Positions 3,273-23,383 of a stretch of DNA of 64,000 nt are shown piece by piece. The DNA is from a virus (lineage: Duplodnaviria; Heunggongvirae; Uroviricota; Caudoviricetes): the IMG/VR virus record IMGVR_UViG_3300033692_000022. The stretch is one strand, 5' to 3'. The position numbers were made by a program, and so were the translations under genes. The notes under the pieces are model-generated. The model had not been told where the DNA came from and made no database searches. It was given only the letters and a program-made list of their open reading frames with translations. How positions within the stretch are numbered: position 1 is the stretch's first letter; each line of letters starts with the position of its first letter.

Positions 3273-3707
3273 ATGGGAGAATACAACAAAAAAGATATCA
3301 AGTTAAGTAAAGCTGGCGATATAGAACTTGAGGCTACAGCAGAAGATGAAGATGGTAACCCTCTCTATGATTTTAAGATGACCTCTGATACTGAGTCTTT
3401 AGAGCAGGATATATACAATAGAATAAAAACAAACTCTCCAGACTGGGAACTACACCCAGAAATAGGTGGGAACCTTGAAGATATAATAGGAGAAAAGAAC
3501 ACACAGGAAGTAGCACAGATTGCCGAGGACCAGCTAAGAAAGACTCTAACCTATGATAACAGAATAAAAACAGATGACCTTGAGGTATATGGAATCCCAA
3601 CCGACTACGATGAAGTAACATTTTATATAAAAGTACAGGTAGATAGTGTAAGTGAGCCTATAGTTATTCCAATACCATTCAACTTTATCAGGGGAATGTT
3701 AGAATAA
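3273..3707 (+). CDS. Baseplate wedge protein, gp25 / GPW-like
   Basis: 144 aa, matching the size and conserved pattern of the GPW_gp25 family (DIYNRIKTNSPDWELHPEIGGNLEDII...DQLRKTLTYDNRIKTDDLEV). It sits between the spike-like and J-like genes. Confidence 0.55.
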   Translation: MGEYNKKDIKLSKAGDIELEATAEDEDGNPLYDFKMTSDTESLEQDIYNRIKTNSPDWELHPEIGGNLEDIIGEKNTQEVAQIAEDQLRKTLTYDNRIKTDDLEVYGIPTDYDEVTFYIKVQVDSVSEPIVIPIPFNFIRGMLE

Positions 3708-3720
3708 AAGGAGGAAGAAA

Positions 3721-4539
3721 ATGCTAGAAAAAAAGACATATAATGAATTAATGGATGAAGCCCTTTATCTTATTCCTAGAAATACTGATATTACAAATGT
3801 GAACCCGGGCGGAATAGCAAGAAGTCTTTTAGAGATACAAAATAGACAGCTTGCTAAATACTATGACACTCTTGAGGTAAATCATGCTTTGGGATTCCTT
3901 TCAGAAACTAAGGGTGAATACCTTGATCTGATAGGTCAAATGATGGACTGTCAAAGAGAGCCAGAAGAGGGCGACGAAAATTACAGGTACAGGATAAGCC
4001 AGAAGGTAAATACAGCAGCTAAAGCAAATAAGATGGCTATTAGACTTGGATGTTTAAGTGTAGATGGAGTAAGAGATATAAAGATGAAACGATGGGTGCA
4101 GGGCACGGGTTCTTTTGCAGTTTATGTAATATCTGAAGAAGGAATAGTATCAGACGAGCTATTAGAGAGAGTACAGAAAAAGATAGATGAAGTACAGGCC
4201 TATGGCAACAAGGGTATAGCCGTCAAGCCCAATGAAATAAAACTTGAGATGAAAGTGCGTATAACCTATTCTTCAGATACCACTGAGGTAGAAAAAAGAA
4301 ATGTGGCCCTAGATGCAAGAAGAAACTTAAGAAAGTATATACAGAACTTAAGTATAGGTGAGGACTTAATAATAAACGAAGCCATAGAACGTGTAATGAA
4401 CACCAGTAATCAGATTAAAAATATGAATATCTACCATTTATCACTTAGAGGTAGGCCAGTATTGCTCAGTGATCAGACAGTTTACTGGGATGAGATAATA
4501 GTAGAATCAGATAAACCCAATTCAGTATATGTAAGCTAA
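3721..4539 (+). CDS. Baseplate J-like protein
   Basis: The N-terminal region (DEALYLIPRNTDITNVNPGGIARSLLEIQNRQLAKYYDTLEVNHALGFLSETKGEYLDLIG) matches the Baseplate_J family signature. Strong ribosome-binding site AAGGAGGAAGAAAATG. Confidence 0.6.
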   Translation: MLEKKTYNELMDEALYLIPRNTDITNVNPGGIARSLLEIQNRQLAKYYDTLEVNHALGFLSETKGEYLDLIGQMMDCQREPEEGDENYRYRISQKVNTAAKANKMAIRLGCLSVDGVRDIKMKRWVQGTGSFAVYVISEEGIVSDELLERVQKKIDEVQAYGNKGIAVKPNEIKLEMKVRITYSSDTTEVEKRNVALDARRNLRKYIQNLSIGEDLIINEAIERVMNTSNQIKNMNIYHLSLRGRPVLLSDQTVYWDEIIVESDKPNSVYVS

Positions 4540-4634: not shown

Positions 4635-6035
4635 GTGCGTAACTTAAAGGAGAGGTATATCTTGTCTTATAATATTAATTATCCTTATTCAGATAAAACT
4701 CAAGAGATGTTCGATTATCTACCCAGCTGGATGGAGATGGCCAAAGAAAAAGAGTCTTCCGCACAGCAATTTATGAATTTCTTTGGGTTGAAATTTGAAG
4801 AGATGGATGAAATTTTAGAAGAATTATTAAATAATAGAATACTTGTTACAAATAGCACCGAACAGCCCGACATTATATACAAGATCGACCTCCCTTCGAT
4901 ATATATTGAAAGTAGCGAGGTTGAGATAAAAGGGGCTGGAAGAATATTAGAAGAAAAGAATGAGCTCAAAGAATTTTATAATACTGACGACTCATATATT
5001 ATAGATACGGAAAAGAATATAGCATACATCAGAAATTCTTATGGCGGCGAAGATACAGGTAAAGTAAATGTAAGCATATACAATAAATCAGAACTGGTCT
5101 TTGAAGAAGAAATAGAACTGAGAGTACACCATGTATGGAACTCATTAGACGAGTTCGGATTACTGCTTAACTTACCAAGAAACCACAATGAAGATAATGT
5201 ATCCTACAAAAAGAGACTGCTAAATGTATTTAGGTACCTGCCTAATTCGACAAAAAGCGGATTAACATATGGTATTTCAAATTCACTCGAGCTTATTAAA
5301 ACTATAGAGTGGCCAAATGATGATGTTGCTATTGAGATACAGGGAACACAGATACTTAAAAGTACCATAAAAGTAAATGGCAAAAATGTAGAAGAAGAAA
5401 ATATAACTAAGCTGGATAATGATAGATACAAGATAGACCCAGTTAATACTGGTTCAGAAAGTATTGTAACATATATCTGCGGAGTAGAGCTGCATTCACT
5501 CAGTGATAAAAAAGACGAAAAGTTCCAGAACCAACTCTATAAGACAAATAAGACGGCCACAAATAAATTAAAGTATTATGTAAATAGAATTACTGATGAT
5601 ATCCCTATTATGTGGGGATCGTTCTTATGGGACAGGGGCTGGTGGGACCCAGCAGAAAAGAACCTATTCGGTATAGATTTTCTACCGTCAATCTGGGATC
5701 CAAATGTAGAGAACTGGAAATACTTCGAAGAAGATGAAAAACAGCCTCTCGACGTAGAAGGCATGGAACACTTTATGTTCTCAAGTTACTGGGACGAAAG
5801 CCAGTACAACGGCAGACTGGGATTCAATAAAGGTAAACTATATGGTATACCTGTAGGAGAATTTACTTTTTCGGACGATGGTGGAAAAACTGATTACGAT
5901 TTAACTTCTGGCTTTGACAAGGGAGAACTTACAGATACTGAAGTAGAAGAGTTTTCTTTTTCAGATGATATAGCAGAAGTCCAATACAGCATGAAAAAAG
6001 GATTTAACTATGGATACTTCAGAGAGGAGGATTAG
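4635..6035 (+). CDS. Baseplate / tail-fiber-associated protein (gpI-position)
   Basis: 466-aa ORF between baseplate J and the first giant fiber. No recognisable catalytic motif; assignment is by synteny only. Confidence 0.3.
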   Translation: MRNLKERYILSYNINYPYSDKTQEMFDYLPSWMEMAKEKESSAQQFMNFFGLKFEEMDEILEELLNNRILVTNSTEQPDIIYKIDLPSIYIESSEVEIKGAGRILEEKNELKEFYNTDDSYIIDTEKNIAYIRNSYGGEDTGKVNVSIYNKSELVFEEEIELRVHHVWNSLDEFGLLLNLPRNHNEDNVSYKKRLLNVFRYLPNSTKSGLTYGISNSLELIKTIEWPNDDVAIEIQGTQILKSTIKVNGKNVEEENITKLDNDRYKIDPVNTGSESIVTYICGVELHSLSDKKDEKFQNQLYKTNKTATNKLKYYVNRITDDIPIMWGSFLWDRGWWDPAEKNLFGIDFLPSIWDPNVENWKYFEEDEKQPLDVEGMEHFMFSSYWDESQYNGRLGFNKGKLYGIPVGEFTFSDDGGKTDYDLTSGFDKGELTDTEVEEFSFSDDIAEVQYSMKKGFNYGYFREED

Positions 6036-6040: not shown

Positions 6041-9000
6041 ATGACAAAACGACTTAAGGCTTTTCAGTCAGGAATAGGAGACAATGAAGATCTATTCCCA
6101 AAAGCACCAGAAAGCTCAAATATTGTAGAAGAATTTAGTTACTATTTAAGATTAAAAGGAACAAAAATAAATAATAGGGCAACGTTCCCTGAAGCAGAAT
6201 TCAACGCTATGCTAACTCTCCATGCAAATCAAAAACAGGCTAATCACCCAGAAGAAAGTTATAATATTTTACTTAAGGGATATCCTGTTTTTAGAGTAGA
6301 CTATGAGGTAAAAGCTAAGGCAAGGCATAATCCTGCTACTTTTAAGTATAAAATTGGAGTTAAAACTGGCCAATGGTACAGGGAAACAGGAGAAAAGACC
6401 GGGCAGACAGTAAAAGATGGTCATTTTTATAAGTCTTCTAATAGTAGGGTAGAAGATATAATAACTTCAGATTCCAATATCCCCTCTGATGTATTCGGAG
6501 GTTCTTATACCGTTAAGAGCATAGCAATTATGGAATCAGGAACCAATAATACAAGCATCATAATATTCAGCCAAGATGGTGAGAATAAAATAGATAGTTC
6601 GGACACTAACGCTATCAGAGATAGTTATGTATATTCAAAGGGAAGTGTATATACTGGAGATATATATGAGCACAAGGGCTCATTCACGAGATCAGTAACC
6701 AAAAGAGATGGCCAGATTGATCTAGGTACTATTTTAAATCACAGCTTCCCAGAGCCGCCGGCCGGACAAACAGTAGACTACGAGATAATAGATAACTCCT
6801 TCCACAGAAATCACATCAACTTAAGATTCTCAAACGGCAGCAGCCAAACAACCAACCACAACAACAATATATTACTGGATACAGATTATTACATGACTAA
6901 AAGAATAACAGGAGACGTTAAATACGGAGAGCCAGCTTCTATAAAAATAGATTCAAAAAATGGATGGAACAGGTCTATACCTAATCCTAGTGGATTAAGC
7001 AGGCCAGATAGATTTTTGATAGAAAAAGACGACCAGTCAAGTAGTGGCTATATAAAAAGTAACTTTGGATTATCATCTTCTGCTTCCATCACAAAATTTT
7101 CGACATACAACGATGACGTTGATGATAGGTTTACTGATACAGACTACAAAATAGATGACTCACTGATAATAAAATCTACTCATGAAAACTATGTAGATGG
7201 AGCCTGGGTATCTAACCCTAGATTCTTTAATGGATTTGTAAACGGAGATGGACCATTGTGGATGAGAAAACCATATAAAGCAACGATAGAAATAAGCAGA
7301 CCGAAAAAAGTCGCAGAAGAAGATAAAGAATACTATATTATCGATTACGATATAATTAGTCTTGATTATTACAATTATAGGGGCAGCTACAAAATACCGG
7401 CCAGTATATATCCTGAGACCATAAAAGTCAAGTTGGAAATTATTTCCTATGAATATGACTATGATGGGGCACTAGATGATGACGGTGTTGATATTTACTT
7501 CGATGATCTAACAACAGAAAGAGACTTAGATAACGGGATACACGAAAATATAACTGTAAAATCTCAAACCTCGATAGAGGAAAATATTGAAAGAGAATGG
7601 ATATCTCCTGCTTTAAGTTATGACAAAATAAATATCAGACAGGGCGAGTCATATGATAGAGACTTACCAGATTACGGAGAATTCAATATACCAGATGATG
7701 TTGAACCTCCTTTCGATTATATTCTTGATTATGATAATCAAAACATCAATGCTGAAATAAATAATGGCGTGGTTTCCGCTTATGTTAGGAAATCAAACAA
7801 CTGGCCACTCAATATCCATAACGGTTATTATTATTTAAACCAAAAAGAAAATTACCTATATGCTAATAAAAAAGAAGTAGAGGTAAAAGATGTTGGTACA
7901 GACGTAGAAGATAGATATGAATTCAAACTCTCTTCTACTTGCGAAAGATCATTTAATGTACCAGAAAGTAAAGTAATAGAAGTAGATAGCAAGAGTGACT
8001 TCGAAAACAACAAAATAGCATCGAATATAGATCTAAAAACAGAAGAGGGAATAGCAAAATTAGCTGTAAATCCTTCTAGTAATGTTAAATATAGTTTCGC
8101 AGATGGCATGGATATAATTGACATGGCCATAGATTATGAAAGAAGCCAGATCATAGCAGGAACAGGTTTAAGCGGTTTAATAATATATGACTATTACAAT
8201 AAGGAAAAAGTTGCTCAATTAGATCATACTAACAGTCCTTTAAAAGATAGGCCAATATCTTCAGTAGCATACAGCAACGGTAGAATAGCAGTAGGTTATG
8301 AAGAAGATGGAGTAATTGTTATAGGCTCAGAAAATTATAGCAAGCTGGCAGAATATACCGATGAATCAGAGTTGAATCTTTACTGGCGTAATGGTAACAA
8401 AATAAGAGATTTATATTTAACTGACCAGTATTTGATTATAGGTAGTGGATACGGCGGCGGAATAGCCGTAATAGACTTCTCTACTAATATGATTGAATAC
8501 TACAGGACAAATGGTTATGAGGACTATATAACATCAATAGACTTTGATGGTGAATACATCTATGCTTCTTATAGTTACAGCTCTGGATTCAATAGTGGGA
8601 TAATTAAATGGACCTTTAAAGATGTCGATCCAGATAACACAGAAGAAATATATAGAGATACATCTACCTATCCTATAGTAGTAGATATCAAAGCTAAAGA
8701 CGGCAAGATATATGCAGCAAAAAGAGACGACAAGAAAGCACTAATAATAGATGAAAACGGAGAGATAGAAGAAATAGCAAGTCCAGATGGTACTCATTTA
8801 ATATGCGTAGATGTAGACAGTGATTACCTGTATCTTGGAACAATGTCCGGTGTTTACTTATATAATTTCGAGCACCAGGTAATAGAACAGGAAATAAATA
8901 ATATAGTAGATTTCGGTCTTGGTAATAATGCAAACTCCATAATCAAAGAAAAGGACAAGCTATTCGTTGGTACTGTAAATGGTATTGCAGAGTTAGGAAA

Positions 9001-10666
9001 GAAATATGAAAGTTACGGAGAGATGTTATCAGAAATCTATGACCTAAGTAGTGATGTTGCCGATATAGATGCAATAACATTTGATTCTATAGAGGAAGGT
9101 GGCACAAGGATAGTAGTTACAGCAAGAACTTCAGATGATATGGAGAACTGGTCTAACTGGGAGCTAAAGCCCCCTAAAAATAGATACTACCAGTTTAAAG
9201 TTGAAATGTGGAGTGATGATGCTTTAGATAACAGAATAACTCCTAAGCTGGATAAAATAACTATTCAGTATTACAAATCAGAAGACCGTACAGAAATGGT
9301 TGATATAGATACTGATCCTATTAAGTTTATAATCAGGCAGGACTCAAGATACCATCAGCTATTTAATGATACAGCAGAAGAAATATTAAAAGAACACATA
9401 GAAAATAAAACTGACTACTCTATTGATAAACTCGTTATTAAAGATATTAGAGCGGAAGAAATAAGCCCAAATATAGAGGTTGAAATACAGGATAATATAA
9501 TCTATGCAAAAACAATCTTTAACCAGGACGACAGTAATATTGACTTCATATTAAATGAGGTGCCACAACAGGGTAGCCCTATAATAGTAACAGACCTTGA
9601 GACCGGTAATAAACTTAGAGCTGTAAAATTCCAGAACGAATTCGGACAGTACTCAATAATGAAAACTGAAACCCTTGAAATAACAAAAAATAGTACTGTA
9701 ATCGCCTCGTTTACTGACATAAAAGATGTTGTAGCTTACGACCTTGATGGTGATTTACTGGATGTATCTGGTGTAGATGAAAATGAAGTTACTGTATACA
9801 AGGGAAGAGACAGCCTACCAAAAGGACAAAAAATAGAGCTATCATATATCTTGAGAGATTCATTCATAGCAGATCAAAACTTCGGAGAAGAACAGACGAG
9901 GTTTACCTTTTCAAGAAAGTACGAGAATATAAAAATCGAATATGAAGGAAGTAAATTTAGTAAATTCTACAGCGCCGAAGAGGTAGAGTTAAACCCGATA
10001 TTCAGTCCTTATGTCAATGGATTTAGTTATATAAGCGAAGATAAAAAAGACCCATTCTATTTAAAGTTGGAAGTGTCTCCAGAATGGACATTCTTCGGAG
10101 TAGAAGAAAACATATCAGTATTCTGTATGATAACAGACATATTGGGTAACCCTATACAAAACCACGGCATAGAATTATTCACAAATACCGGCAGCATAGA
10201 AGTAGAAAATGAGAGTAAGACAGATCAATACGGAGTCGTTAGGGGCATATTAAAACCAGACGATGAAGCCAGACGAATTACAGTAACAGCAAGAGTAGAC
10301 GGTACAACACTAACTGAAAGCAAAAGTGTTAACGTAATCGAGGATAAGACCCCTGATTATTACTTGTTCGTAAACTCAGATACAGACCTTCTTGCTACTA
10401 CCGATGGTGATGACCTACAGGAAACACTGGTCAAGGCAAGGCTTGTTGATGAGAAATGGAACCCAGTATATGATGAAGAGATAATGTTTAATATAGTAAG
10501 CGGAAGAGGCTCAATATCTGGGAGGAAAAGAACAAATAATGCTGGAGTTGCTACTGCAGTTTACACATCGGGAAGCAATAGCGGAATATCAACTATAAAG
10601 GCAACAGCAGAAATAAACACAAAATACTATTCTGACACAAAAGAGATAGAAGTAATAGATATATAA
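6041..10666 (+). CDS. Giant tail fiber / adhesin (1541 aa) with beta-propeller-like repeats and a C-terminal bacterial Ig-like (Big_1-type) domain
   Basis: Sits in the P2 gpH position. The central region carries repeated strand motifs (IAVGYEEDGVIVIG, YLIIGSGYGGGIAVIDF, YIYASYSYSSG). The C-terminus (ARLVDEKWNPVYDEEIMFNIVSGRGSISGRKRTNNAGVATAVYTSGSNSGISTIKATAEI) resembles invasin/intimin Ig-like domains. Confidence 0.5.
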   Translation: MTKRLKAFQSGIGDNEDLFPKAPESSNIVEEFSYYLRLKGTKINNRATFPEAEFNAMLTLHANQKQANHPEESYNILLKGYPVFRVDYEVKAKARHNPATFKYKIGVKTGQWYRETGEKTGQTVKDGHFYKSSNSRVEDIITSDSNIPSDVFGGSYTVKSIAIMESGTNNTSIIIFSQDGENKIDSSDTNAIRDSYVYSKGSVYTGDIYEHKGSFTRSVTKRDGQIDLGTILNHSFPEPPAGQTVDYEIIDNSFHRNHINLRFSNGSSQTTNHNNNILLDTDYYMTKRITGDVKYGEPASIKIDSKNGWNRSIPNPSGLSRPDRFLIEKDDQSSSGYIKSNFGLSSSASITKFSTYNDDVDDRFTDTDYKIDDSLIIKSTHENYVDGAWVSNPRFFNGFVNGDGPLWMRKPYKATIEISRPKKVAEEDKEYYIIDYDIISLDYYNYRGSYKIPASIYPETIKVKLEIISYEYDYDGALDDDGVDIYFDDLTTERDLDNGIHENITVKSQTSIEENIEREWISPALSYDKINIRQGESYDRDLPDYGEFNIPDDVEPPFDYILDYDNQNINAEINNGVVSAYVRKSNNWPLNIHNGYYYLNQKENYLYANKKEVEVKDVGTDVEDRYEFKLSSTCERSFNVPESKVIEVDSKSDFENNKIASNIDLKTEEGIAKLAVNPSSNVKYSFADGMDIIDMAIDYERSQIIAGTGLSGLIIYDYYNKEKVAQLDHTNSPLKDRPISSVAYSNGRIAVGYEEDGVIVIGSENYSKLAEYTDESELNLYWRNGNKIRDLYLTDQYLIIGSGYGGGIAVIDFSTNMIEYYRTNGYEDYITSIDFDGEYIYASYSYSSGFNSGIIKWTFKDVDPDNTEEIYRDTSTYPIVVDIKAKDGKIYAAKRDDKKALIIDENGEIEEIASPDGTHLICVDVDSDYLYLGTMSGVYLYNFEHQVIEQEINNIVDFGLGNNANSIIKEKDKLFVGTVNGIAELGKKYESYGEMLSEIYDLSSDVADIDAITFDSIEEGGTRIVVTARTSDDMENWSNWELKPPKNRYYQFKVEMWSDDALDNRITPKLDKITIQYYKSEDRTEMVDIDTDPIKFIIRQDSRYHQLFNDTAEEILKEHIENKTDYSIDKLVIKDIRAEEISPNIEVEIQDNIIYAKTIFNQDDSNIDFILNEVPQQGSPIIVTDLETGNKLRAVKFQNEFGQYSIMKTETLEITKNSTVIASFTDIKDVVAYDLDGDLLDVSGVDENEVTVYKGRDSLPKGQKIELSYILRDSFIADQNFGEEQTRFTFSRKYENIKIEYEGSKFSKFYSAEEVELNPIFSPYVNGFSYISEDKKDPFYLKLEVSPEWTFFGVEENISVFCMITDILGNPIQNHGIELFTNTGSIEVENESKTDQYGVVRGILKPDDEARRITVTARVDGTTLTESKSVNVIEDKTPDYYLFVNSDTDLLATTDGDDLQETLVKARLVDEKWNPVYDEEIMFNIVSGRGSISGRKRTNNAGVATAVYTSGSNSGISTIKATAEINTKYYSDTKEIEVIDI

Positions 10667-10678
10667 GGAGGGAAGTAG

Positions 10679-11464
10679 ATGACAGAATCTTTTAAGAAAG
10701 AAATTGAAGACGGAAAATACAGATTAAAGATTGGAAAGCAGGTTCCAGAAGACGATGTTAATATATGTTATCTTGATACCCCTCCTTTAAAATCTACCGA
10801 GAATGTGTATCTTACTGATCTGTCCGAAGGGATAGCAGAAAACAGCTGGGGCGCAAGCAGCAAAGAAAGAACAATGTATTCTGGAGAAGATGGTAAGTTA
10901 TATAATGAATCATTTACAGTAGACAGTGTACCAACTGAAGATGTGCTTGTAACAGATATCTATATGGATCAAGATAACCTTAATGGCCCACTATATTATA
11001 AATACAACCTCTTATATGAACACAGAGACTACACCACAGAGGTTACAGACAATATCAACATACTAAAAGAAGATGGGTCAAAAGTAAGTAAGGAAAGATA
11101 CAAAATTGAATACACCAAAACAGCAGAGGCGACTTACGAGGTCACTCTCTTTTTGTCGTTTAACTCAGATGAAAATAACACATACAGAGTAGAGTACGAC
11201 GCCTTAAATTTCGACAAAATAGTTAAAAGAGACCATACTGAAATACTTAATGCTGAAAAGATATTTAAAGAAACATCTATCAGTGAGGTAAGAGACCATA
11301 GTAATATAGGTAAGAAAATATACGCCAAGAAGGTAGACCAGGAAACAAACGGTTATAATATTTATGTTCCAGTTAAATCTTCAGAGACAGAAGGATCACT
11401 TCACAATAAAGAGATAAATGCTGACCTTCCATTACCATTTAAGTATGAGCAGTTCATTTTGTAA
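10679..11464 (+). CDS. N-terminal segment of a split vWA-domain structural protein (continues in the −1 frame at 11449)
   Basis: 261-aa ORF ending FIL*. The downstream vWA beta-1/MIDAS motif begins in the −1 frame with no start codon (see finding). Confidence 0.5.
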   Translation: MTESFKKEIEDGKYRLKIGKQVPEDDVNICYLDTPPLKSTENVYLTDLSEGIAENSWGASSKERTMYSGEDGKLYNESFTVDSVPTEDVLVTDIYMDQDNLNGPLYYKYNLLYEHRDYTTEVTDNINILKEDGSKVSKERYKIEYTKTAEATYEVTLFLSFNSDENNTYRVEYDALNFDKIVKRDHTEILNAEKIFKETSISEVRDHSNIGKKIYAKKVDQETNGYNIYVPVKSSETEGSLHNKEINADLPLPFKYEQFIL

Positions 11465-13407
11465 TAGATAAGTCTGGTTCTATGAGAGGGGAAGACCCCT
11501 GGAACCCTATGAGAAATGCTGTCAGATACTTTAGAGATTTAGAGAATGTAGACTGTAAGTTTAATGTTACCTATTTCGATAATGATGTTCGTACTGTTTA
11601 CGGTGGTTATGTTAGCCCTTCAACAATACTAGGCTGGAATAACCCTGGTATGGGAGGATCAACAGCTTTCTATGATGCGACCAATGCTGCAGTAAGTAAG
11701 ATGATAAATTATAATAACCTACCAGAAGACCATTCCAAAACTCTTAAAGGATGGAAAAAGGTAATAATAACCATGACTGACGGTCACGACAATGCAAGCA
11801 GCTGGAGACCGCATGATGTAAAAAATAGAGCAGATAAAAACATGGACTCATTAATCTATGGAATTGCCTTTGGTGGCGGGGCGGATACAGGTGCTGTTAA
11901 TGCCATATCACACAAACACAGAAGCGACTCCTCATTGGAGCAGGCTTTTATAGAGATAAGTGAAGAAGTTAAACCGGTACCATTTTCAGACAGGATACTT
12001 GTAGGTTCTGGTCTTGTATCGGAGAACAACAGCCCACTCAAACTAAGACAGTTGATGCTCAATATAACTGATGATATGATGATCGATTCTGTAGAGATAA
12101 CAATGAATGACACCAGTAATGACGTTCACACATTCTTCATGAATGAAAATAACGGCAATAGAGTGGGTACAAGTTTTGACGGCGAGGACCACAGTAAAAT
12201 ATACGCTAAAGACCTCTTGTTTTTCAATGACTCTAAAAGTAGTTGGGAATATGACACAGACAATAGAATATATGTTTACGCCGAGACTGACAAAAAGACA
12301 AGAATATACTCAAGGCAGTATGATGTAAAGATGAAGGAAAGCAAGGGTATATATGCAAGAATGCCAGACATAGATAACATATTCAAAAACTGGTATTTAG
12401 AAGTTCATAACGGCAGGTTCAATACTGAAGTAGTATCTGGAGATGAGATATACAGCTATAATTACTACCTACCAGAATACGAAAGACAATTAAGTGTTAC
12501 CGATGGCAACAACTCTATTAGGGTAAACCAAGAGATTCCAGAAATAATTGATAGAAACCAGCTAAAGCTGGCCCATAAGCCACTTGAAGTAATATCTGAA
12601 AGAGTAGACGGAAAAAGAAATATAAAAAATATAACAGTTAAGCAGGACGAACAGGAGATAGAAATTGAAGACTTCAATGCTGAAGGCGGAATACTGTTCT
12701 TAAAAGATAATATAGATCATACCAAAGATGTCAGAGTTAGTTATTCATACACTAATGAGTGGTATACCTATAAAGGATACTACGATGAAAAGAGAGATAA
12801 ATTTGTATCACTTGACTTAAATCCATTTAATGGTCATAAATACACCAAGAAGTTAGGTAACAATACTTATGTTGAAGAAGACACAAGAGACTTATTCAAT
12901 AAAGTTATCTACCTATATTTAAGACCCGCAGATACAACCAAGAAAAGACCAGGCCGGCCTTATGAAATAGTTTTAGGTAGTAAAAATGATTACACTATAT
13001 TCCATACAATAGGACATAAGTTAAGCGAGTCTGACAGTATGTATTCTGAAAATGTAAAAGAATTAGCCATGATATATCTAAAACCAAACTCTACACAGGA
13101 AGATATATCAGTCATAGATGGCAGAAAAAGAGGCGGCGGCCTAAAGGAAACCATAAACCAGGAGATTATCGAACAGATTAATCCAGAGTCTAATTACTAT
13201 TGGGATATCGGATACTTAGACGGTAAAGCATACCCTGGCAACTCTGTAATAATAGTCAAGCTACCCAAAGAGATATTAAAAGATTATGGAGGCAAATTTG
13301 AAACACAGGAAGTAGAAGAAATAATAGATGAACACATAGCTTATGGATCTTACTTTATCATTGAATATATAGATGACGAAGACTTCATAAGTGATTACGA
13401 GCTCTAG
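11449..13407 (+). CDS. von Willebrand factor A (vWA/MIDAS) domain virion protein. The frame is open from 11449, and the ORF track starts it at ATG 11482, which lies inside the domain.
   Basis: Translation from 11449 gives AVHFVIDKSGSMRGED...GGSTAFYDATNAAVSKM...KKVIITMTDGHDNAS. This contains the DxSxS, T and D residues of a MIDAS site. No ATG/GTG/TTG precedes the DKSGSM motif in this frame. Confidence 0.6.
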   Translation, partial: AVHFVIDKSGSMRGEDPWNPMRNAVRYFRDLENVDCKFNVTYFDNDVRTVYGGYVSPSTILGWNNPGMGGSTAFYDATNAAVSKMINYNNLPEDHSKTLKGWKKVIITMTDGHDNASSWRPHDVKNRADKNMDSLIYGIAFGGGADTGAVNAISHKHRSDSSLEQAFIEISEEVKPVPFSDRILVGSGLVSENNSPLKLRQLMLNITDDMMIDSVEITMNDTSNDVHTFFMNENNGNRVGTSFDGEDHSKIYAKDLLFFNDSKSSWEYDTDNRIYVYAETDKKTRIYSRQYDVKMKESKGIYARMPDIDNIFKNWYLEVHNGRFNTEVVSGDEIYSYNYYLPEYERQLSVTDGNNSIRVNQEIPEIIDRNQLKLAHKPLEVISERVDGKRNIKNITVKQDEQEIEIEDFNAEGGILFLKDNIDHTKDVRVSYSYTNEWYTYKGYYDEKRDKFVSLDLNPFNGHKYTKKLGNNTYVEEDTRDLFNKVIYLYLRPADTTKKRPGRPYEIVLGSKNDYTIFHTIGHKLSESDSMYSENVKELAMIYLKPNSTQEDISVIDGRKRGGGLKETINQEIIEQINPESNYYWDIGYLDGKAYPGNSVIIVKLPKEILKDYGGKFETQEVEEIIDEHIAYGSYFIIEYIDDEDFISDYEL

Positions 13408-13810
13408 AAAGGAGGATTCAATGCCTAAAAGCGACTATCCAAACAATATAGATAGATTCCCTAAAGCGATAGCAAATTCTGATGGGGTGGTCGATTTAAC
13501 CCCTGAAAACTTAAATAAAATACAGGAAGCTATAATGTCAGTACAAAATGAGTTAGGGGTAGAACCAAGTAAAGATAAAGAAGATGTCAGGTCAGTGCTC
13601 GAAAATATAATAGATACTAAAGTAACTAAAGGCACTCCGATGAATCTGAATATGGAGTTAGTTGAAGATGAGAACGGAGATCAGGTTATAGATTTATCAT
13701 TTTCATACGTAGACAACAAAAATTTAGAGTATTTTATTCTGGAAGTATGGGATGAAGAACGACAAAAATACGTACCCTATGATAATAAATTAGGGGTAAT
13801 AAGAAAGTAG
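13391..13810 (+). CDS. Hypothetical virion protein
   Basis: 139-aa ORF with ribosome-binding site AAGGAGGATTCAATG. No recognisable motif. Confidence 0.3.
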   Translation: MITSSRKEDSMPKSDYPNNIDRFPKAIANSDGVVDLTPENLNKIQEAIMSVQNELGVEPSKDKEDVRSVLENIIDTKVTKGTPMNLNMELVEDENGDQVIDLSFSYVDNKNLEYFILEVWDEERQKYVPYDNKLGVIRK

Positions 13811-13818
13811 GTGCTTAC

Positions 13819-14241
13819 ATGGAAGATTTAACTATTAAAAATCTGGATGCTAAAAAAATAAGGTTAAAATTTGGTGATGAAGCTATAGTAGCAACCAGGA
13901 AAAAATTAAATACAAAGCATGTAGGTGCCAAAAGGGTACGCATAAGAGCAGTAATCAATGGAGACAAAAAAGAATTTTGTTATTTTGGGAGGTTCAAACT
14001 CCCTGTAAAGGATAAAAACAAAGTTAGAATCAAAGGCAACAATGGTCAGTGGGTTGAAGGAAAAACGATCAACCTGCTCAAACCACCTACTATATCTTCT
14101 TCTACAGTAAGAAAACCATATTCTCCAAATCTTCAAGTGGAGGTGATTAATACTCCAATAAGGCCAGACACCCTATCTGTTTATAATGAAAAAGTATTGC
14201 AGCACCCCAGAAAAATAGAAACAAGTACCAAAAAAATATAA
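13819..14241 (+). CDS. Hypothetical basic virion protein
   Basis: 140-aa ORF, Lys/Arg-rich, with a TACATGG start context. Confidence 0.3.
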   Translation: MEDLTIKNLDAKKIRLKFGDEAIVATRKKLNTKHVGAKRVRIRAVINGDKKEFCYFGRFKLPVKDKNKVRIKGNNGQWVEGKTINLLKPPTISSSTVRKPYSPNLQVEVINTPIRPDTLSVYNEKVLQHPRKIETSTKKI

Positions 14242-14253
14242 GGAGTTGGTAAT

Positions 14254-15459
14254 ATGCCAAAAAGAACAAAATTAGTATTTGATAGAAACAGTGATGACAC
14301 ACAAAAGTACAATGTCTACAGAGGCAACCAGACAGGAGTTACAAGTTCTTCTGAGCTTGTAATGGAAATTTCCCAGCCAGCAGCACAGTCTGTTATTAAA
14401 GATGTAGTTGGAGAAACTCTTAGTGCAGACGCAGAATTTTTAGTCTATACAGCTGGTCACAAAAATATAATAAACGATGGAACAAATTATCCAGTTACAG
14501 TTTATGTTAATGGGACAGAACAAACAACAGGATTCACCATTAACTATTTACTCGGTAAAGTTACATTTGATGTAGCTTTAACAGTAAATGATGTAATTAC
14601 AATGGATTACAGTTATGACGCGGTAGAGGTTTTAGATGATGACGGTACACAGACTAATGTAACATTCTTAGGAACAGTAGCACAAGACTTAGCTGCTCCA
14701 GATATTCCTGCAAACCCAGGCATAGTTGGAGACGACGCCAATAACAAAGCGATAGTATCATGGGATGGAGTATTAGCAGATAACGGAAGTCAGTACTTTT
14801 ACAAAGTAGAAGCAGAAGATGAGGTAGGAAATAAATCTACATTAACTGCAGAAGTAGCAGCAGTATTAACTGAGGGACTTCATGCAAACCCTTATGTTCT
14901 TGAGAAATCAGAAGACGGAGGAAACACCTGGAGTATAGTAGGAGAATTTAGTACTACTTCCTATGAGGAGACAGGAGTAGATACTACTGCACCAGATGGA
15001 GTGGCTTCTTTAGTATCTACAGTTACAGAAGTTGGAGATCCATTAAAACCAGCTGTTCAGCTTACATGGCAAAACCCTGCTGATGACAATGAAACAATGT
15101 CTCTGACTTATAGAGTTAAATCACAGGATGCTAATGGGAATGTTTCTAGTCCAGGAGCTGCAGTTGGACCGGTTCCAGTATCAACAGGACTTAAAAGAGT
15201 ATTCATTAAGCGTAAGGTAGATGACGGAACTTACCCAACTAATAACGATACCTCTCTTGTAGTATTCGATTCTACAGATTTCACAAATCAATCTTTTGTT
15301 GATTTAGATGTAGCAGAAGATACAATATACAACTACTCAGTTTTTGTTGAAGATAATGCAGCGAACGTATCGGTTGCGGCTACAGTTCAGGCTTCAGTTG
15401 GAGACTTCACTGCTCCTGAAACAGTAACTGGATTAGCAGCTGAGGAAGTAACTATATAA
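14254..15459 (+). CDS. FN3/Ig-like repeat structural protein, possibly an abundant tail or decoration protein
   Basis: It carries several fibronectin-III-like modules (QYFYKVEAEDEVGNKSTL; LTYRVKSQDANGNVSSPG). A strong GC hairpin terminator follows, and its N-terminus is paralogous to the next gene. Ribosome-binding site AAGGAGTTGGTAATATG. Confidence 0.4.
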   Translation: MPKRTKLVFDRNSDDTQKYNVYRGNQTGVTSSSELVMEISQPAAQSVIKDVVGETLSADAEFLVYTAGHKNIINDGTNYPVTVYVNGTEQTTGFTINYLLGKVTFDVALTVNDVITMDYSYDAVEVLDDDGTQTNVTFLGTVAQDLAAPDIPANPGIVGDDANNKAIVSWDGVLADNGSQYFYKVEAEDEVGNKSTLTAEVAAVLTEGLHANPYVLEKSEDGGNTWSIVGEFSTTSYEETGVDTTAPDGVASLVSTVTEVGDPLKPAVQLTWQNPADDNETMSLTYRVKSQDANGNVSSPGAAVGPVPVSTGLKRVFIKRKVDDGTYPTNNDTSLVVFDSTDFTNQSFVDLDVAEDTIYNYSVFVEDNAANVSVAATVQASVGDFTAPETVTGLAAEEVTI

Positions 15460-15472
15460 TACTAAATAAATA

Positions 15473-15492
15473 GGCGGGGGCTTCCCCGCCTT
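15473..15492 (+). terminator. Rho-independent-like terminator hairpin (GGCGGGG-gctt-CCCCGCC)
   Basis: A 7–8 bp all-GC stem directly after the stop of the FN3-repeat gene, followed by a short TT. Confidence 0.5.
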
Positions 15493-15515
15493 AAGATACA
15501 TAAAGGAGTGATAAA

Positions 15516-16055
15516 ATGCCACTAGGTATAAGAATTTCATGGAATAAAAACAATGATGACACAGTAGAATACGGAGTCTGGAGGAGAACAGAGTCAACAG
15601 AACTCTCAGAAATAACAAGAGTGCCTCAACCTACAGATCAAACTAGCCCATCTTATAACGATGAAAATATAGATATAGCGGATCCAACAGCGCCTGGTAT
15701 TACAATAAATAGACCAACGACCACAAGTGCAACTGTAGAGATAACAACAGTATCTACAGATGCAGCAAATCCTGTTTATTACTATTCAATAAAATCATAT
15801 GATGAGGCCGGCAACAGCTCACCATTGTGTCCAGAGGTAAGTCTGCAGCCTTCAAATGCAATAGATAGATATGAATGGACACTAATAAATGATGCAGATT
15901 CAAGCACAGTAGACAGTGGAGTAATAGACCCACTTAATCCAGTATCAGCAGAGACAACACTAACAGCTGGAGAAACTTATCATTACGAAGTTAAAGCTGT
16001 AGATCTTGACGGAAACGAAAGTACATTAACTTCATCCGAGCCATTTACAGTATAA
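15516..16055 (+). CDS. FN3-like structural protein, paralog of the 14254 gene N-terminus
   Basis: ISWNKNNDDTVEYGVWRR aligns with FDRNSDDTQKYNVYRG of the upstream gene. YYYSIKSYDEAGNSSPL is an FN3-like strand motif. Confidence 0.4.
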   Translation: MPLGIRISWNKNNDDTVEYGVWRRTESTELSEITRVPQPTDQTSPSYNDENIDIADPTAPGITINRPTTTSATVEITTVSTDAANPVYYYSIKSYDEAGNSSPLCPEVSLQPSNAIDRYEWTLINDADSSTVDSGVIDPLNPVSAETTLTAGETYHYEVKAVDLDGNESTLTSSEPFTV

Positions 16056-16069
16056 GAGAGGTGAAATAA

Positions 16070-16615
16070 TTGACTACAGAATTTGAAAGACACTATGATA
16101 ATATAGGAGAAATTATAGATGCTCAAGACGTCAATGAGCTGCAAGATGTAATAAATATCAATGAACAAAATATCCAGATGTTAAGAGATGTTGATTTCGA
16201 AGATTTTTCCCTTTGGCTACTTAAAAACAGGGAGGAATTCAATCGTTTATGGATAGATACATTCAATGACAAGACTAAGATAGATGAAGTTGAAAGCTCA
16301 AAATTAATATACCTACCTAAAGATAGAATGGTAAAAGTCAGGAGAGATCAGGATTTTGCAGAGCTTTATTCTAAAGCCTATAATGATGATGAAAATATAA
16401 ATAGAGCTATCCTGCTAACACAGACCGCGGTGCATAATAGTGAAGATTTAATAAAATTTCAAATATCTATTAATGGTATGTCTTTTGAGGATATACAACC
16501 TAACGAGTTATTCGAGCCTGATAATATAGGTAATAGTTTTAAGTTAAAAGCGCTGTTTAACAAAGATAGTGAGAAAGGACCAGAGCTCTACAGATGGGCT
16601 TTGCTCTGGGGATAA
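16070..16615 (+). CDS. Hypothetical protein (TTG start)
   Basis: 181-aa ORF with GAGGTGAAATAATTG ribosome-binding site spacing. Confidence 0.3.
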   Translation: MTTEFERHYDNIGEIIDAQDVNELQDVININEQNIQMLRDVDFEDFSLWLLKNREEFNRLWIDTFNDKTKIDEVESSKLIYLPKDRMVKVRRDQDFAELYSKAYNDDENINRAILLTQTAVHNSEDLIKFQISINGMSFEDIQPNELFEPDNIGNSFKLKALFNKDSEKGPELYRWALLWG

Positions 16616-16638
16616 TATATTAAGGAAGGAGTGAAGGA

Positions 16639-17529
16639 ATGCCTCGGATACAAAAACTTATAGATGGTACATTTAAAAAAGTTGACAATAAAAGAGAAAG
16701 AGAACTACATGAAAAAATCGACCAGGAGATATTAGAAAGAATATCTGAAGATGATCGGATAGAGGATAAATTCACTAAAATAACAAATGATTTAGAGATA
16801 GATATAGATAATGTAGAAGAAGCACTTAACCAATTTATAATTGAACAAAATAATATAAATGATGAACTTAAAGATGAAATAGATACAGAAAGAAGTCAAA
16901 GACTTGAGGCAGATGACACACTCCAGTCCAATATAGATTCTGAAGAGAATGCTCGTAAATCAGAAGATCAAGCAATAAGGAATGCGATACAGAACGAAGC
17001 AGAAGAAAGAGCCTACGAAGACCAAAAACTTCATAATAAAATAGATGATGAGATATATGACAGAGAACAGGCAGATATAGAACTCAATGAAGTTATCAAC
17101 ACTGAAAGGTCCGAAAGAATAGAAGCTATAAACGATCTCGATTCCAGGCTAAGGCAGGAGATTGTTGATAGAGAAGACGCTGATAATTCTTTAGAGAAAA
17201 AAATAGAGCGCGAGACAAACGAAAGAAAACTTGATGTTAGAATCCTTAATCATAGAACAGATGAAGATACCATTCTTACAAATATGATAATGGATCTTGA
17301 CAGTGAGCTCCAATCTGAGACTAATGCAAGAGAAGCAGAAGACCAAGCACTGCATGCTAAGATAAACCAAGAAATAGCCGATAGAGAAAGTGATGTCTCA
17401 ACTCTTACAACAAATCTCGACAATGAAATACAAACTAGAGTGTCTGAAGTTAATAGACTTGATCAGAGAATAGATGATCATACTGATTCCAACAACTCAG
17501 ATCCGACAATAATCTACAGACTCAAATAG
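16639..17529 (+). CDS. Tail fiber coiled-coil repeat protein, N-terminal part of a split gene
   Basis: Acidic heptad-like repeats (LQSNIDSEENARKSEDQAIRNAIQNEAEERAYEDQ...). The same repeat continues in the −1 frame from 17487. Confidence 0.5.
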   Translation: MPRIQKLIDGTFKKVDNKRERELHEKIDQEILERISEDDRIEDKFTKITNDLEIDIDNVEEALNQFIIEQNNINDELKDEIDTERSQRLEADDTLQSNIDSEENARKSEDQAIRNAIQNEAEERAYEDQKLHNKIDDEIYDREQADIELNEVINTERSERIEAINDLDSRLRQEIVDREDADNSLEKKIERETNERKLDVRILNHRTDEDTILTNMIMDLDSELQSETNAREAEDQALHAKINQEIADRESDVSTLTTNLDNEIQTRVSEVNRLDQRIDDHTDSNNSDPTIIYRLK

Positions 17530-19064
17530 ATGAACTTGATACTATGCTATCGGATGAAGAAACTACAAGGTTTAATGCCGATAAGGCCTTGAGGGATGAC
17601 CTTGACGCTGAAGAGGCAGCAAGAATAGCCGGGGACAACAACCTACAGAACACAATAGACCAGTCAATAGATAATCTTCTGGCCAGAGAATTCTACGGGG
17701 TCGCAGAAGAGACACTCGGAACAGTAACTACTACAACATATGACTTAAATACATCTCAGGAAATAGTACAGGATGTAAGATATTTTGTAGTAATGAATAA
17801 TGACGGCACAGAGGTTATTGGAGATAGCGGCAGTCCAGTTAGTGTTGTAGACATATCTAATAAAACTATCACTTTTAGTGAAACTCCTAATCAAGATGTT
17901 GTTGTTCAGTTCGCAATCAAAAAAACATTAGGCACACTGCCTGCGGACGCACTAATAACTTATGATACCGTAGGTACTAAATTAGATGCAGATATTACCG
18001 AAGTTATAGGGGCCGCGTATTATGATGGGCGAAAGAATGTAGCAGATAACTTCTCACTGGATGTAAGAATAGAAAACGAGATAGAAGATAGAACCAACGC
18101 TGATAATTCTCTCCAAAGCAATATAGACTCTGAAGAGGCGGCAAGAATAGCAGCTGATAATACACTGCAGGATAATATAGATGCAGAAGAGGCGGCTAGG
18201 ATAGCAGCAGATAACGCCTTAGAGCAGACTATTGAAGACGAGGTACAAACAGCAATCACTCAGCTTCAGGCAGATATAGCGGCGGAAGAACAGGCCAGAA
18301 TAGATGCCGATAATGAACTGCGTAACACTATAGAAAATGAAGTCCAAACTGCAATAACACAAATGGAAGAAGACCTTGCGGCGGAAACAGCAGCCAGACA
18401 GCAGCAGATAGCAGACCTACAGGAACAAATAGATAATGATATACAGATAGCCATTGACCAGATGCAGTCAGATCTACAGGCCGAAAAGACAGCCAGACAA
18501 AATGCCGACGACGCATTACAGGCTCAAATAGATACACTTAATACTGAAGTAGCTTCTAAGTTTGATGACCTATATGATGACTTCTATGCTCACCACCACG
18601 ATTCTCAGTACGTAAATCAAGACGGAGACGAAATGACAGGAGACTTAAGTTTCTCTGCCGGTAAAGGAATAGAGTGGTATGAGAATACTGATGGGGCTGA
18701 AATCAAGTTTAACAGTGATAGCGATAGCGCCCAACAGTCTAATCTTGAGTTTAGAGTAAGAGACAACATGGATGAAGGCTTTAAGTTTATAGCATATAAC
18801 GATGGTGTAGACGTAGACGGCATAGAGCTAATGTATATGAATAAAGATAACTTTGATTATCGCGGCCATGAAATCTGGCATGCAGGAAACGATAGCCACA
18901 ACTCAGGTTTAAATGCAGATATGGTCGACGGAGAACACAAAACAGAAGTTAAAGATAATGCTAGAAAACAAACAAATGAATTGAGATTAGAGACTAGAAC
19001 TTCTGATCCAGCAAATGCTGAGGTGGGTAGAATATGGTTAAGAACAGACTTAGTACCAGAGTAA
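17487..19064 (+). CDS. Tail fiber coiled-coil repeat protein, C-terminal part, ending in a DGDEMTGDL-type fiber tip domain. The frame is open from 17487 and the track ATG is at 17544.
   Basis: Repeats DNSLQSNIDSEEAARIAADNTLQDNIDAEEAARIAADNALEQ are followed by HHHDSQYVNQDGDEMTGDLSF, a motif recurrent in phage fiber distal domains. Confidence 0.5.
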   Translation, partial: FQQLRSDNNLQTQIDELDTMLSDEETTRFNADKALRDDLDAEEAARIAGDNNLQNTIDQSIDNLLAREFYGVAEETLGTVTTTTYDLNTSQEIVQDVRYFVVMNNDGTEVIGDSGSPVSVVDISNKTITFSETPNQDVVVQFAIKKTLGTLPADALITYDTVGTKLDADITEVIGAAYYDGRKNVADNFSLDVRIENEIEDRTNADNSLQSNIDSEEAARIAADNTLQDNIDAEEAARIAADNALEQTIEDEVQTAITQLQADIAAEEQARIDADNELRNTIENEVQTAITQMEEDLAAETAARQQQIADLQEQIDNDIQIAIDQMQSDLQAEKTARQNADDALQAQIDTLNTEVASKFDDLYDDFYAHHHDSQYVNQDGDEMTGDLSFSAGKGIEWYENTDGAEIKFNSDSDSAQQSNLEFRVRDNMDEGFKFIAYNDGVDVDGIELMYMNKDNFDYRGHEIWHAGNDSHNSGLNADMVDGEHKTEVKDNARKQTNELRLETRTSDPANAEVGRIWLRTDLVPE

Positions 19065-19080
19065 TGGAGGTGAATTATAG

Positions 19081-22000
19081 ATGGCAGGACAAAAGTTAGT
19101 ATATGATTACTATAGAGAAAGAAGAGGTAGCTGGTACTGGCTTAGCTCAAATCTAAGAGAATGGCTAAATAGCGACCAGGAAAATGTAGGATATACTAAT
19201 GAACCTCCAAATAGTAGCAACCTAGGTTCTGATAGTTATGCGGATGAAGCCGGATTTTTAACTAACTTTACAACAGCAGAAAAAAATGCTATAGCAGTAA
19301 CAAGACACAGAGGGTATACCAGAGGTGTTGATAGTTCCGTAAAGGATGGTGGGAGTACTGATTTAAACTTTTCTTCGTCTTTTGATACTCCATTTGCTAA
19401 CTATTATTGCTCGGGTGTTGAAGATAATTGGGGCTCTTTTAATTATAAAATTTCAGATGATAAAGTATTTTTATTTTCTCCAGTAGAAATTCACCATTAC
19501 TCACAAAGTAGAAATTTCAACATAAAAAAAGCGCCTTCCCAGTATATAAGAAATAAATATAATATATCTTCAAATTATATAAAGTATACCGTTCAGAATG
19601 GGGAGCACTACGACAGACTTTGCGCAATTAGCGATGAAGGAACATTCTCTTCTACTAACTCTGACTCTACAACAGGAATAGCACCTGCTATACATCTCAA
19701 ACCCGATTATACGTTGGATAGTGGGAAAAAAGTATCAAATTTAAAAGTTGGAGAAGAAGTCGTATTTGGTAATTATGGTGGACACCAAATATCGTGGATA
19801 GTAGTTAATAAAACTCCAGATGACTTTGCATTGCTCTGGTCAAAAGAAGTAATAACTTTAAAAGCATACGATTCTCCTAATGATGACTTCTCCTGGGAGT
19901 ATTCAGACCATATAAATTTCAGCAACTATGATGTAAATATAATTAACGACCTTCAAAAATGGTATCCAACAAATGATAAAACTTTACCGAGACTTTATCT
20001 TCTCAATGAAGACGATCTAAATTCAAGACAAGACGGCGGATGGACCTTAAAATTACAGGCAGAAGATACAGGGTCCGGCATAGAAAAGATAGTATTACCT
20101 GATGGTACCGAAGTTTATGATAACTACGCTGAATATTATATTACTGAAAATAAAAGATATTTCATGCACACTGTAGACAATGCTGGGAATAGAAATAATC
20201 TAACTATTCCAGTAAGTAATATAAACCCACCTTCTTCTGTGGACATCAACTCATCATCTGATGGATGGACTAATTCAGACGTAAATGTAGAGATAAAAGC
20301 ATCTAATGACGTAAATGATTATTATGCAAATGAAATAATAACAAATAGTAGAGACTGGTATGGTCCAGCTTGGCCGAATTCTATATCTTACACTGGAAAA
20401 ACCTTCAGAGTGACAGGTAATATAGAATTAATAGATCACAGCGCAGATTTAGGTAATGTAAGAGCAAATGTGGGTTTTAGATATATAAGAAGATATAATA
20501 AAAACGATGGGTACGACATATCGAATAGTTGGCCCACAATAGAACATTTTTATCTTAGGGATATTAACGGAACACAGGCTAGTTTTGATTTTGAATACAC
20601 AGTACCTGGGGATTATTATAAAGATATAAGGCCATTTTTACAGATTGGAGTAGCACATCATAATCATAATTATACAGTAAAATACACTAATGTTAAATAC
20701 GAATTACTTGATAAAAGTGACTTTGGTATAGATTACATCAAACTACCAAATGGTCAGAAAATATATCAAGACACTTATACAACCACAATCACAGAAGAGG
20801 GAACGTATACTTTTGAGGTTATGGATAATAGAGGCGTAGTTACATCAAGAACTATAGAGGTGCTGATAGAAACTAACCCTCCAGATCTAAATATAAGTCA
20901 GGAAGTAACCAAGAAAACCAATCAAAGTTATGACCTCATTGTAAATGCTTCAGATTCCGAAAGCGGAGTTAAAAGAATACTGCAGCCCAACGGCGAATGG
21001 GTTGAATCTGATTCTTTAAGGTATAATATTTATCAAAATGGAACCTATGAGTTTACAGCAGAAGATAATGCTGGTAATAGAAAAACTAAATCAATAACAG
21101 TATCAAATATAGACAAGACTAGCCCAGTAGACCCCAATATCCATGTAGTTGATAAAGGAGAAAATCACGTAACACTTAATTGGATAGCAGATGATACAGA
21201 GTCAGATATAGATTCAATCAGGTTATATTTCCAAGAATCAGACAGTGATGGTAATCATCTGAAAGATATAGATATCAACGGAGATGGAAACACAGAATAC
21301 GACGTTGATGTTACTGGCCAGGAATCATATACGATTAATGGATTAAATGATTACACATACTACAGATATTATTTAAGAGTGATAGATTCAGTAGACAATG
21401 TAAGAAATGACGGCTATCATACCGTAAGAACTCAAGACACTACGGGGCCAATAGTAGATATAACATCGCACAACGATAATACTAATATCGGATATATCGA
21501 CGGCAATCAACTCACTTTAAGCGGAACAGCAGATGACAATGGAGAGGTTGATAGAGTAATCTTAAACGCTTCGGGCGCAGTCACACTTAATGACTTAGTT
21601 ATAGACGACAGCTCACCAGAAAACTGGAGTTATACAAGATCATATCCCGAAGGTCATACAAGACTAGAAGTTAAAGCAATAGACAAAGCCGGCAACGAAT
21701 CGGATGCCAAGTATATAGAATTTGATGTAGATACTGAAGCTCCTCAGATTGTATGGAATAATCACACAGATAAGAGCTGGCGCAACACTGTACCTGATGT
21801 CCACACTAATAATATAGATATAAACTCTGGTATTAGCACCTCAAAACTAGCAGTAACCTCAAATACAACTAAACCTTCCGACTGGATTAATGACTCCTCA
21901 CCTAGTAACACATACTTCCAAAACACATTAGAAGGAAAACCAGATGGTGAATGGTACTGTCATGTTGAAGTAACAGACAACAACGGCAACAGTACTTATA

Positions 22001-23369: not shown

Positions 23370-23383
23370 ACTAGGAGGCAGAA

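Follow-up and report, generated by a model that had tools for sequence, protein, structure and literature searches.

The 64,000-nt stretch of DNA analysed here (the window; IMG/VR record IMGVR_UViG_3300033692_000022, a virus of the class Caudoviricetes) carries, within a block of baseplate and tail-fibre genes, a von Willebrand factor A (vWA) domain with a MIDAS (metal ion-dependent adhesion site), in a protein whose coding sequence is spread over two overlapping reading frames. All features of the locus lie on the plus strand. The upstream open reading frame (ORF) runs from 10679 to 11464 in frame A and encodes 261 aa, and the downstream ORF, called from an ATG at 11482 to 13407, encodes 641 aa in frame B, offset by −1 from frame A. 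Frame B is open from 11449, immediately 3′ of a TGA, where it reads AVHFVIDKSGSM, and it has no in-frame ATG, GTG or TTG between 11449 and 11482. Its first ATG (11482–11484) specifies the methionine that follows the D-x-S-x-S motif of the MIDAS and is preceded by aagtctggttct, which contains no Shine-Dalgarno sequence, whereas most neighboring genes have AGGAG- or GGAGG-type sites. The coordinates 11449–13407, given for the vWA gene in an initial annotation made from the sequence, therefore correspond exactly to an open frame but not to a gene that could be started. As called from ATG 11482, the ORF does not encode a complete vWA domain, as strand β1 and the D-x-S-x-S motif (11449–11481) lie upstream of it; if the allele were real, a product initiated there would lack β1 and three of the five MIDAS residues.

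We found that window 10679–13407 is one gene, an orthologue of gene 164 of Bacillus phage 0305phi8-36, whose native product has 923 aa. Alignment of the DNA with four intact contigs, and base-by-base comparison with a 202-kb contig, showed that exactly 43 nt (AGTTGATATAAGCGGATTTAAGCGCTCAGAGCATAAAGGTATT) are absent from the window at the junction 11448/11449. The loss removes residues 258–271 (VDISGFKRSEHKGI) and, because 43 is not a multiple of three, shifts the frame by −1. In a large protein database, an intact 923-aa protein that is 99% identical (P0001) has its gene on four ENA, Logan and JGI contigs, and a more distant relative of 916 aa (P0002) is 51% identical. Both read PFKYE, then VDISGFKRSEHKGI and then AVHFVIDKSGSM, with the inserted segment taking the form VNIAGFKRSEYKGI in P0002, and the deleted peptide is conserved in P0002 and in further vWA-bearing members. 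The cluster listing for P0001 also led to proteins of the same strain as the window. Two of these, P0155 (261 aa) and P0154 (641 aa), are exactly the products of the two window ORFs and come from one 134,508-nt JGI/IMG contig, and a third, P0156, is an intact 923-aa protein that has every window-specific substitution and is carried by three independent assemblies (ENA ERZ27245728:k141_29228, 202,621 nt; Logan SRR34913713; Logan SRR5852467). Placing E followed by VDISGFKRSEHKGI into the window translation gives exactly P0156. The gene is thus a single frame in seven contigs, three of them of the same strain, and the last residues of the upstream ORF, QFIL followed by TAA (11450–11464), are a spurious out-of-frame tail made by the deletion and absent from P0001 and P0156. 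The initial annotation had anticipated a protein of about 900 aa if the two ORFs were joined, which agrees with the native form in P0001 and P0156, but the two-ORF state is neither a biological fusion nor a frameshift feature and stems from a 43-nt deletion of a single assembly. As gene architecture, the split into 261 and 641 aa is biologically meaningless.

The native protein consists of four parts. Its N-terminal module (residues 1–257; 10679–11448) is identical to residues 1–256 of P0156, aligns by BLASTP with residues 10–214 of gp164 (E = 1e-27) and is modelled with a predicted local distance difference test (pLDDT) score of ~90. The vWA domain (residues 272–447; 11449–11976) follows, with its β1 strand AVHFVID beginning at the first codon past the junction. 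Next comes a small, β-rich middle domain (residues 448–545; 11977–12270), which is built mainly of strands, is modelled at pLDDT ~50–80 and belongs to a variable central cassette, matching only P0002 in sequence among the representatives. The conserved C-terminal module (residues 546–923 and the stop codon; 12271–13407; pLDDT >90) matches phrog_28704 (E = 2.4e-42) and residues 680–1028 of gp164 (E = 2e-58 with the downstream frame). These pLDDT values refer to an AlphaFold2 model of the intact homologue computed from a 48-sequence alignment, with a mean pLDDT of 80.2 and a predicted template modelling score of 0.63; an earlier run on a three-sequence alignment gave a pLDDT of 32 and was discarded.

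Pfam, fold and motif matches agree in confirming the domain at 11449–11976 as a vWA/MIDAS domain, as initially annotated. Pfam VWA (PF00092) matches residues 2–158 of the 11449 frame with 34.8 bits against a gathering score of 23.8 (E = 2.4e-8), VWA_2 matches the same frame more weakly, and intact P0001 scores 33.9 bits with Pfam VWA. Searching solved structures with a two-sequence profile retrieved mussel PTMP1 (E = 2.9e-8) and ITIH4 (E = 1.8e-3), followed by ITIH1, complement C2 and TRAP, and in the alignment VHFVIDKSGSM pairs with the ITIH4 segment VVFVIDKSGSM, both G-x-T and TDG being in register. Foldseek searches of the PDB with the predicted model returned, at E ≤ 1e-3, vWA-fold proteins exclusively (ITIH1, ITIH4, PTMP1, ANTXR1, CMG2, integrin I-domains, TRAP and vWF A3). 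The model has an α/β dinucleotide-binding-like fold that can be superimposed on solved vWA domains. Because no MIDAS residue is missing, the outcome that would have spoken against the vWA call, a non-vWA Rossmann-like fold lacking a MIDAS, did not emerge. The top fold matches are vWA domains of extracellular adhesion proteins (including ANTXR1/CMG2, ITIH, Mfa5, LapA, PilB, GBS104 and RrgA). The window domain nevertheless differs from extracellular vWA and integrin I-type domains (ANTXR1/TEM8, CMG2, ITIH1/4, integrin α I-domains and mussel PTMP1) in that its identity to them is only 10–22% and in that it sits within a structural protein of a phage, flanked by unrelated β-rich modules. With bacterial pilus-tip and surface adhesins (RrgA, GBS104, SpaC, PitA, Mfa5, PilB and LapA) the resemblance is one of operating principle, not of whole-protein ancestry, and the window has none of their sortase, LPXTG, pilin or RTX context.

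The window encodes each of the five MIDAS residues, answering the question of completeness that the initial annotation had raised, and cation binding is predicted from them. The D-x-S-x-S motif (11467–11481), which lies 5′ of the first ATG and aligns with the corresponding strand of ITIH4, supplies D278 (11467–11469), S280 (11473–11475) and S282 (11479–11481). T343, in the sequence GGST (11662–11664), aligns with the G-x-T motif of PTMP1 and sits at the N-terminus of model helix 344–360; its column is kept in nine of the 13 vWA-bearing family members. D382, in MTDG (11779–11781), is placed by alignment to the ITIH4 and PTMP1 motifs and to family members. The complete site is found in nine of the 13 vWA-bearing members, including the window lineage, P0002 and gp164.

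The closest characterized relative of the window protein is gp164. In tblastn searches of deposited phages, the C-terminal half was found in ORF164 of 0305phi8-36 (31% identity, E = 5e-45), as well as in Moorella phage MTATph1 and three Bacillus jumbo phages. The GenBank record of ORF164 (gp164, YP_001429655; 1062 aa) describes a virion structural protein that has a von Willebrand domain of bacterial type and that mass spectrometry identified as a virion protein. When the whole model was searched with Foldseek against the viral predictions of BFVD, the top match was A7KUT8 (1062 aa, E = 1.5e-57), which we infer from its length and accession series to be gp164. A second vWA-containing BFVD match, A7KV72 (553 aa, E = 1.3e-5), belongs to the 0305phi8-36 accession series as well, and this phage may therefore have at least two vWA proteins. 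The window protein and gp164 share the layout of N module, central vWA domain and C module, with the vWA segments at equivalent positions and identities of 33% and 32% in the N and C modules, respectively. They differ in that an insertion of ~140 residues separates the N module of gp164 from its vWA domain, and in that the gp164 vWA domain falls below the Pfam cut-off (17–20 bits), whereas that of the window lies above it. The window phage is also known from metagenomes and has no nucleotide similarity to any deposited phage.

Gene order supports this orthology. In the GenBank record of 0305phi8-36, ORF163, a 2143-aa tail fibre with FN3 domains, is followed by ORF164 and then by the FN3 proteins ORF165 and ORF166, and the window is colinear with this arrangement: 4635–6035 corresponds to ORF162, 6041–10666 to ORF163, 14254–15459 to ORF166/165 and 16070–16615 to ORF167. 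In both phages the vWA gene thus follows a giant fibre and precedes a gp165/166-like protein, and both giant fibres end in Big_1/invasin-intimin-like domains; a C-terminal intimin domain of gp163 was described by Hardies et al. (PMC2147016). Further upstream in the window are a gp25/sheath-initiator-like gene (3273–3707) and a Baseplate_J gene (3721–4539), and Ig-like, FN3, cadherin-like and invasin domains abound among the neighbors. The placement of the vWA protein inside a baseplate–fibre block, proposed in the initial annotation, is borne out by this colinearity and by the two baseplate genes upstream. Its more precise placement, between a giant fibre in the position of gpH and FN3-repeat proteins, holds insofar as the gene lies between fibre genes, but two small ORFs (~129 and ~140 aa) separate it from the gp165/166-like protein, in which FN3 is weak in Pfam. 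Such a protein is indeed absent from T4 and P2, as the description of it as foreign to standard myovirus baseplate inventories implied; its unusualness was overstated, however, because the same arrangement was published for gp164 of 0305phi8-36 in 2007, together with virion proteomics (PMC2147016).

An exhaustive HMMER search with P0001 retrieved 661 cluster representatives at E ≤ 1e-3, 144 of them at E ≤ 1e-30, most of the 661 matching through residues ~550–920. We mapped modules on the best 153 representatives, most of which combine an N module (residues ~1–250) with a C module of ~350 aa. The region between them varies from almost nothing (P0010, 600 aa; P0012, 715 aa) to more than 1,500 aa (P0041, 2184 aa; CDS0051 of the Moorella phage, 2201 aa), and it contains a vWA domain in 13 of 154 representatives examined; Pfam VWA was detected in 7 of 48 family members. 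The related elements BtI1 and BwK1 carry a different domain in place of the central part of gp164 (PMC2147016). Neither the N nor the C module has a relative in Pfam, NCBIfam or the PDB: NCBIfam gave nothing meaningful, neither phmmer with P0001 nor a 48-sequence family profile matched either module among PDB sequences, and their sole family match is phrog_28704, to which no function is assigned there. A word-indexed protein search with a three-sequence profile added one partial match only. The C-terminal ~450 aa, which had appeared to lack any recognizable motif, in fact contain, at residues ~546–923, the most conserved part of the family, as indicated by the phrog_28704 and gp164 matches and the 661 representatives. 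Within residues 586–904 (window ~12391–13347), 15 residues are invariant across 48 members at ~25–30% identity: W586, E614, Y703, Y712, G714, D727, H790, D828, R830, G833, G834, G835, D857, G863 and G904. Residues D828–G835 belong to a DxRxRGGGLK motif and D857 to a YWDIG motif, and this pattern of invariant charged residues and glycines could mark a catalytic or ligand-binding site, beyond a scaffold role.

Considering the locus as a whole, we think it probable that it encodes a gp164 orthologue, a native four-part protein of 923 aa displaying an adhesion-type vWA domain, which has been split in this record by an assembly-specific deletion. The protein is very likely a component of the virion, in agreement with the initial suggestion of a virion-borne adhesion or assembly protein, because mass spectrometry detected its orthologue gp164 in virions (PMC2147016); adhesion is a proposed role. 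The window phage would be a myovirus-type jumbo phage of ~200 kb that carries its gp164 orthologue in the baseplate/fibre region. The N and C modules would form the constant, assembly-competent core that anchors the protein in the baseplate/fibre complex, and the center would be an exchangeable, surface-displayed cassette for which a vWA domain is one option. Through the divalent cation of its MIDAS, the vWA domain may bind a carboxylate or another anionic ligand, most likely on the host envelope, and so help adsorption. This role is suggested by cassette behavior typical of host-range determinants and by the adhesin-like neighbors (Ig, FN3, cadherin-like and invasin domains). Some features of the domain temper this interpretation. 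Residues 318–342 of the vWA model are of low confidence, and in four of the 13 vWA-bearing relatives the MIDAS has degenerated at several positions together, which implies that metal binding is not universally required. More tentatively still, jumbo myoviruses in general might use the gp164 family (at least 661 clusters) as a modular adsorption protein, its constant N and C core plugged into the baseplate, its center an exchangeable host-binding cassette, and the vWA version in this phage a divalent-cation MIDAS receptor-binding module, a generalization that we regard as possible but doubtful. To our knowledge, divalent-cation MIDAS-based phage adsorption has not been demonstrated experimentally. 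This little-studied baseplate/fibre family of jumbo phages, with conserved ends and a swappable center, now extends to an uncultured lineage with a canonical MIDAS, making the window lineage a clean candidate for testing metal-dependent adsorption.

The main rival to a host-binding role is that the vWA domain makes a protein–protein contact within the virion, in baseplate or fibre assembly or in the docking of another fibre, and does not bind the host. vWA domains are commonly protein–protein binders, as in ITIH, proteasome Rpn10 and TFIIH, all of which are among the fold matches, the gene sits between fibre genes, and Hardies et al. considered that such domains could serve either assembly or interaction with the host or environment (PMC2147016). 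Most family members, however, retain the N and C modules while having no vWA cassette or a different one, and a domain so readily exchanged or dispensed with is unlikely to belong to the core of the assembly; the pattern resembles that of host-range modules. We therefore consider a purely intra-virion function unlikely, if the most serious of the alternatives, and favor display of the vWA domain for adsorption.

A separate question is whether the 43-nt deletion exists in nature. Over the 53.7 kb that could be compared base by base (window 679–54369), the window differs from the 202-kb contig ERZ27245728:k141_29228 by no substitution and by eight deletions of 43–124 nt, six of which shift the frame. 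Frameshifting deletions are located at 11449 (43 nt), 17502 (52 nt), 22821 (52 nt), 25662 (124 nt), 26794 (46 nt) and 28227 (62 nt), and in-frame deletions at 17253 (78 nt) and 23277 (54 nt). All eight are confined to 17 kb of tail-fibre genes (11449–28227), and the flanking 37 kb is free of them. The genes disrupted encode 923, 851, 1464, 1258 and 1775 aa, the last four of which appear in the window as ORFs 16639–17529 and 17544–19064; 19081–22830; 23805–25667, 25769–26824 and 26821–27411; and 27431–28228 and 28206–32696, respectively. Genuine strain differences in this phage take the form of patches of substitutions, with few and small indels. A set of eight medium-sized deletions unaccompanied by any substitution, of which six wreck consecutive large structural genes, is a spectrum that is implausible for a viable lineage, and the two-ORF split is most probably an assembly artefact. 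Two considerations limit this reading: the case is built on the pattern of deletions and not on reads, and the deletion borders show no direct repeats or microhomology, so that neither misassembly nor replication slippage is explained.

Alternatively, the deletion could be real and this genome a natural variant, with the vWA baseplate gene and four neighboring fibre genes inactivated or made as separate fragments. The split is present in a public JGI/IMG record, as hypothetical proteins of 261 and 641 aa on a 134.5-kb contig, and losses of 43–124 nt are atypical of short-read or long-read errors. In addition, the N and C modules are joined almost directly in the smallest family members (P0010 and P0012), which suggests that they are separable folding units whose fragments might keep some function. 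We nevertheless regard such a variant as improbable, given the deletion spectrum described above, the occurrence of the deletion allele in no other sample, and a downstream ORF whose ATG at 11482 has no ribosome-binding site and whose product would lack β1 and the D-x-S-x-S motif. With the split taken as an assembly artefact, the two hypothetical proteins of the public record become one 923-aa virion protein, correcting their annotation, and at least four neighboring fibre genes of the same contig are broken likewise. Analyses of this contig would consequently overcount genes and miss large fibre proteins, and might take the junction for recoding.

A non-structural role has been described for other viral vWA–MIDAS proteins, which act as adaptors of MoxR-type AAA+ ATPases in a chaperone pair in haloarchaeal and Acidianus viruses (PMC7911831), and the vWA protein of Acidianus two-tailed virus is among our BFVD fold matches. 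The window protein shares with these (Hardycor1 HrrHc1_245, HVTV-1 and ATV ORF892) a virus-encoded vWA domain with a MIDAS, but they lie in replication or accessory modules beside an AAA+ ATPase and not among virion structural genes. No AAA+ ATPase gene is found within ~10 kb of the vWA gene, all of whose identifiable neighbors encode baseplate or fibre proteins, 24 ORFs across window 5–32696 contained no AAA+ domain when scanned with Pfam and PHROG, and the orthologue gp164 is a virion component, making a MoxR partnership very improbable here. Finally, programmed −1 ribosomal frameshifting or transcriptional slippage at the T-run 11457–11460, through which short and long products would be made in a regulated ratio, as phage tail chaperones are, would suit the −1 relation of frame B to frame A, their overlap (11449–11464) around CATTTTGTAA and the plausible β1 (EQFIL-VIDKSGSM) that a P-site tRNA-Leu slip from UUG to UUU before the stop would give, but it is excluded in practice, as 11449–11464 lacks an X XXY YYZ heptamer, one continuous frame runs through the conserved 14-residue segment in the same strain and in all relatives, and without the 43-nt deletion the two frames would not overlap.

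Additional searches around the junction gave limited returns. A homopolymer (T4/T5) indel or −1 slip at 11457–11460 was considered and dropped after DNA alignment revealed the 43-nt deletion. The 38-mer just 3′ of the junction was found only in the intact JGI fragment among metagenome contigs and nowhere in the viral or genome contig sets, no relative of the locus was found in a viral contig collection, and megablast of 10000–14000 against 50,697 phage records gave no match. Promoter and terminator predictions across 10000–14500 were as frequent as in shuffled sequence, and no tRNA genes were found in the window.

Within the C-terminal module, the strain of the window has a divergent patch (12648–13377, plus strand) with 41 substitutions relative to strains L003–L006, which is also present in the intact allele P0156. 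These substitutions produce 33 synonymous and 5 nonsynonymous codon differences and therefore indicate purifying selection. The patch spans 730 nt at ~5.6% divergence, whereas its flanks show no difference for several kilobases, and this suggests that recombination brought the tract in from a related phage.

Beyond the vWA gene, the 795-aa ORF at the start of the window (5–2392) matches phrog_20474, annotated as an endolysin (E = 5e-67), and corresponds to the C-terminal part of a protein that has 1786 aa in the 202-kb contig and is encoded there directly 5′ of the gp25-like and Baseplate_J genes. The ORF is thus probably truncated by the edge of the window and part of a baseplate hub or tail-associated lysin. 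In a related phage (L008; ENA ERZ773359 NODE_1031), whose vWA protein is 51% identical, the baseplate/fibre block includes a 455-aa radical SAM protein (PF04055; 12742–14109), flanked by the gp166-like gene and the structural genes that come next, which has no counterpart in the window. A tyrosine integrase with Phage_integrase and SAM-like N-terminal domains is encoded at 52845–53762 on the minus strand of the window and at 20501–21403 of L009. It is the sole sizeable minus-strand gene of the window and, in a genome of ~200 kb, is unexpected for a jumbo myovirus. Near the integrase, at ~49.1–50.0 kb, are an Amidase_3 endolysin and a holin_6_1 gene, lysis genes that suggest a Gram-positive (Firmicutes-type) host.

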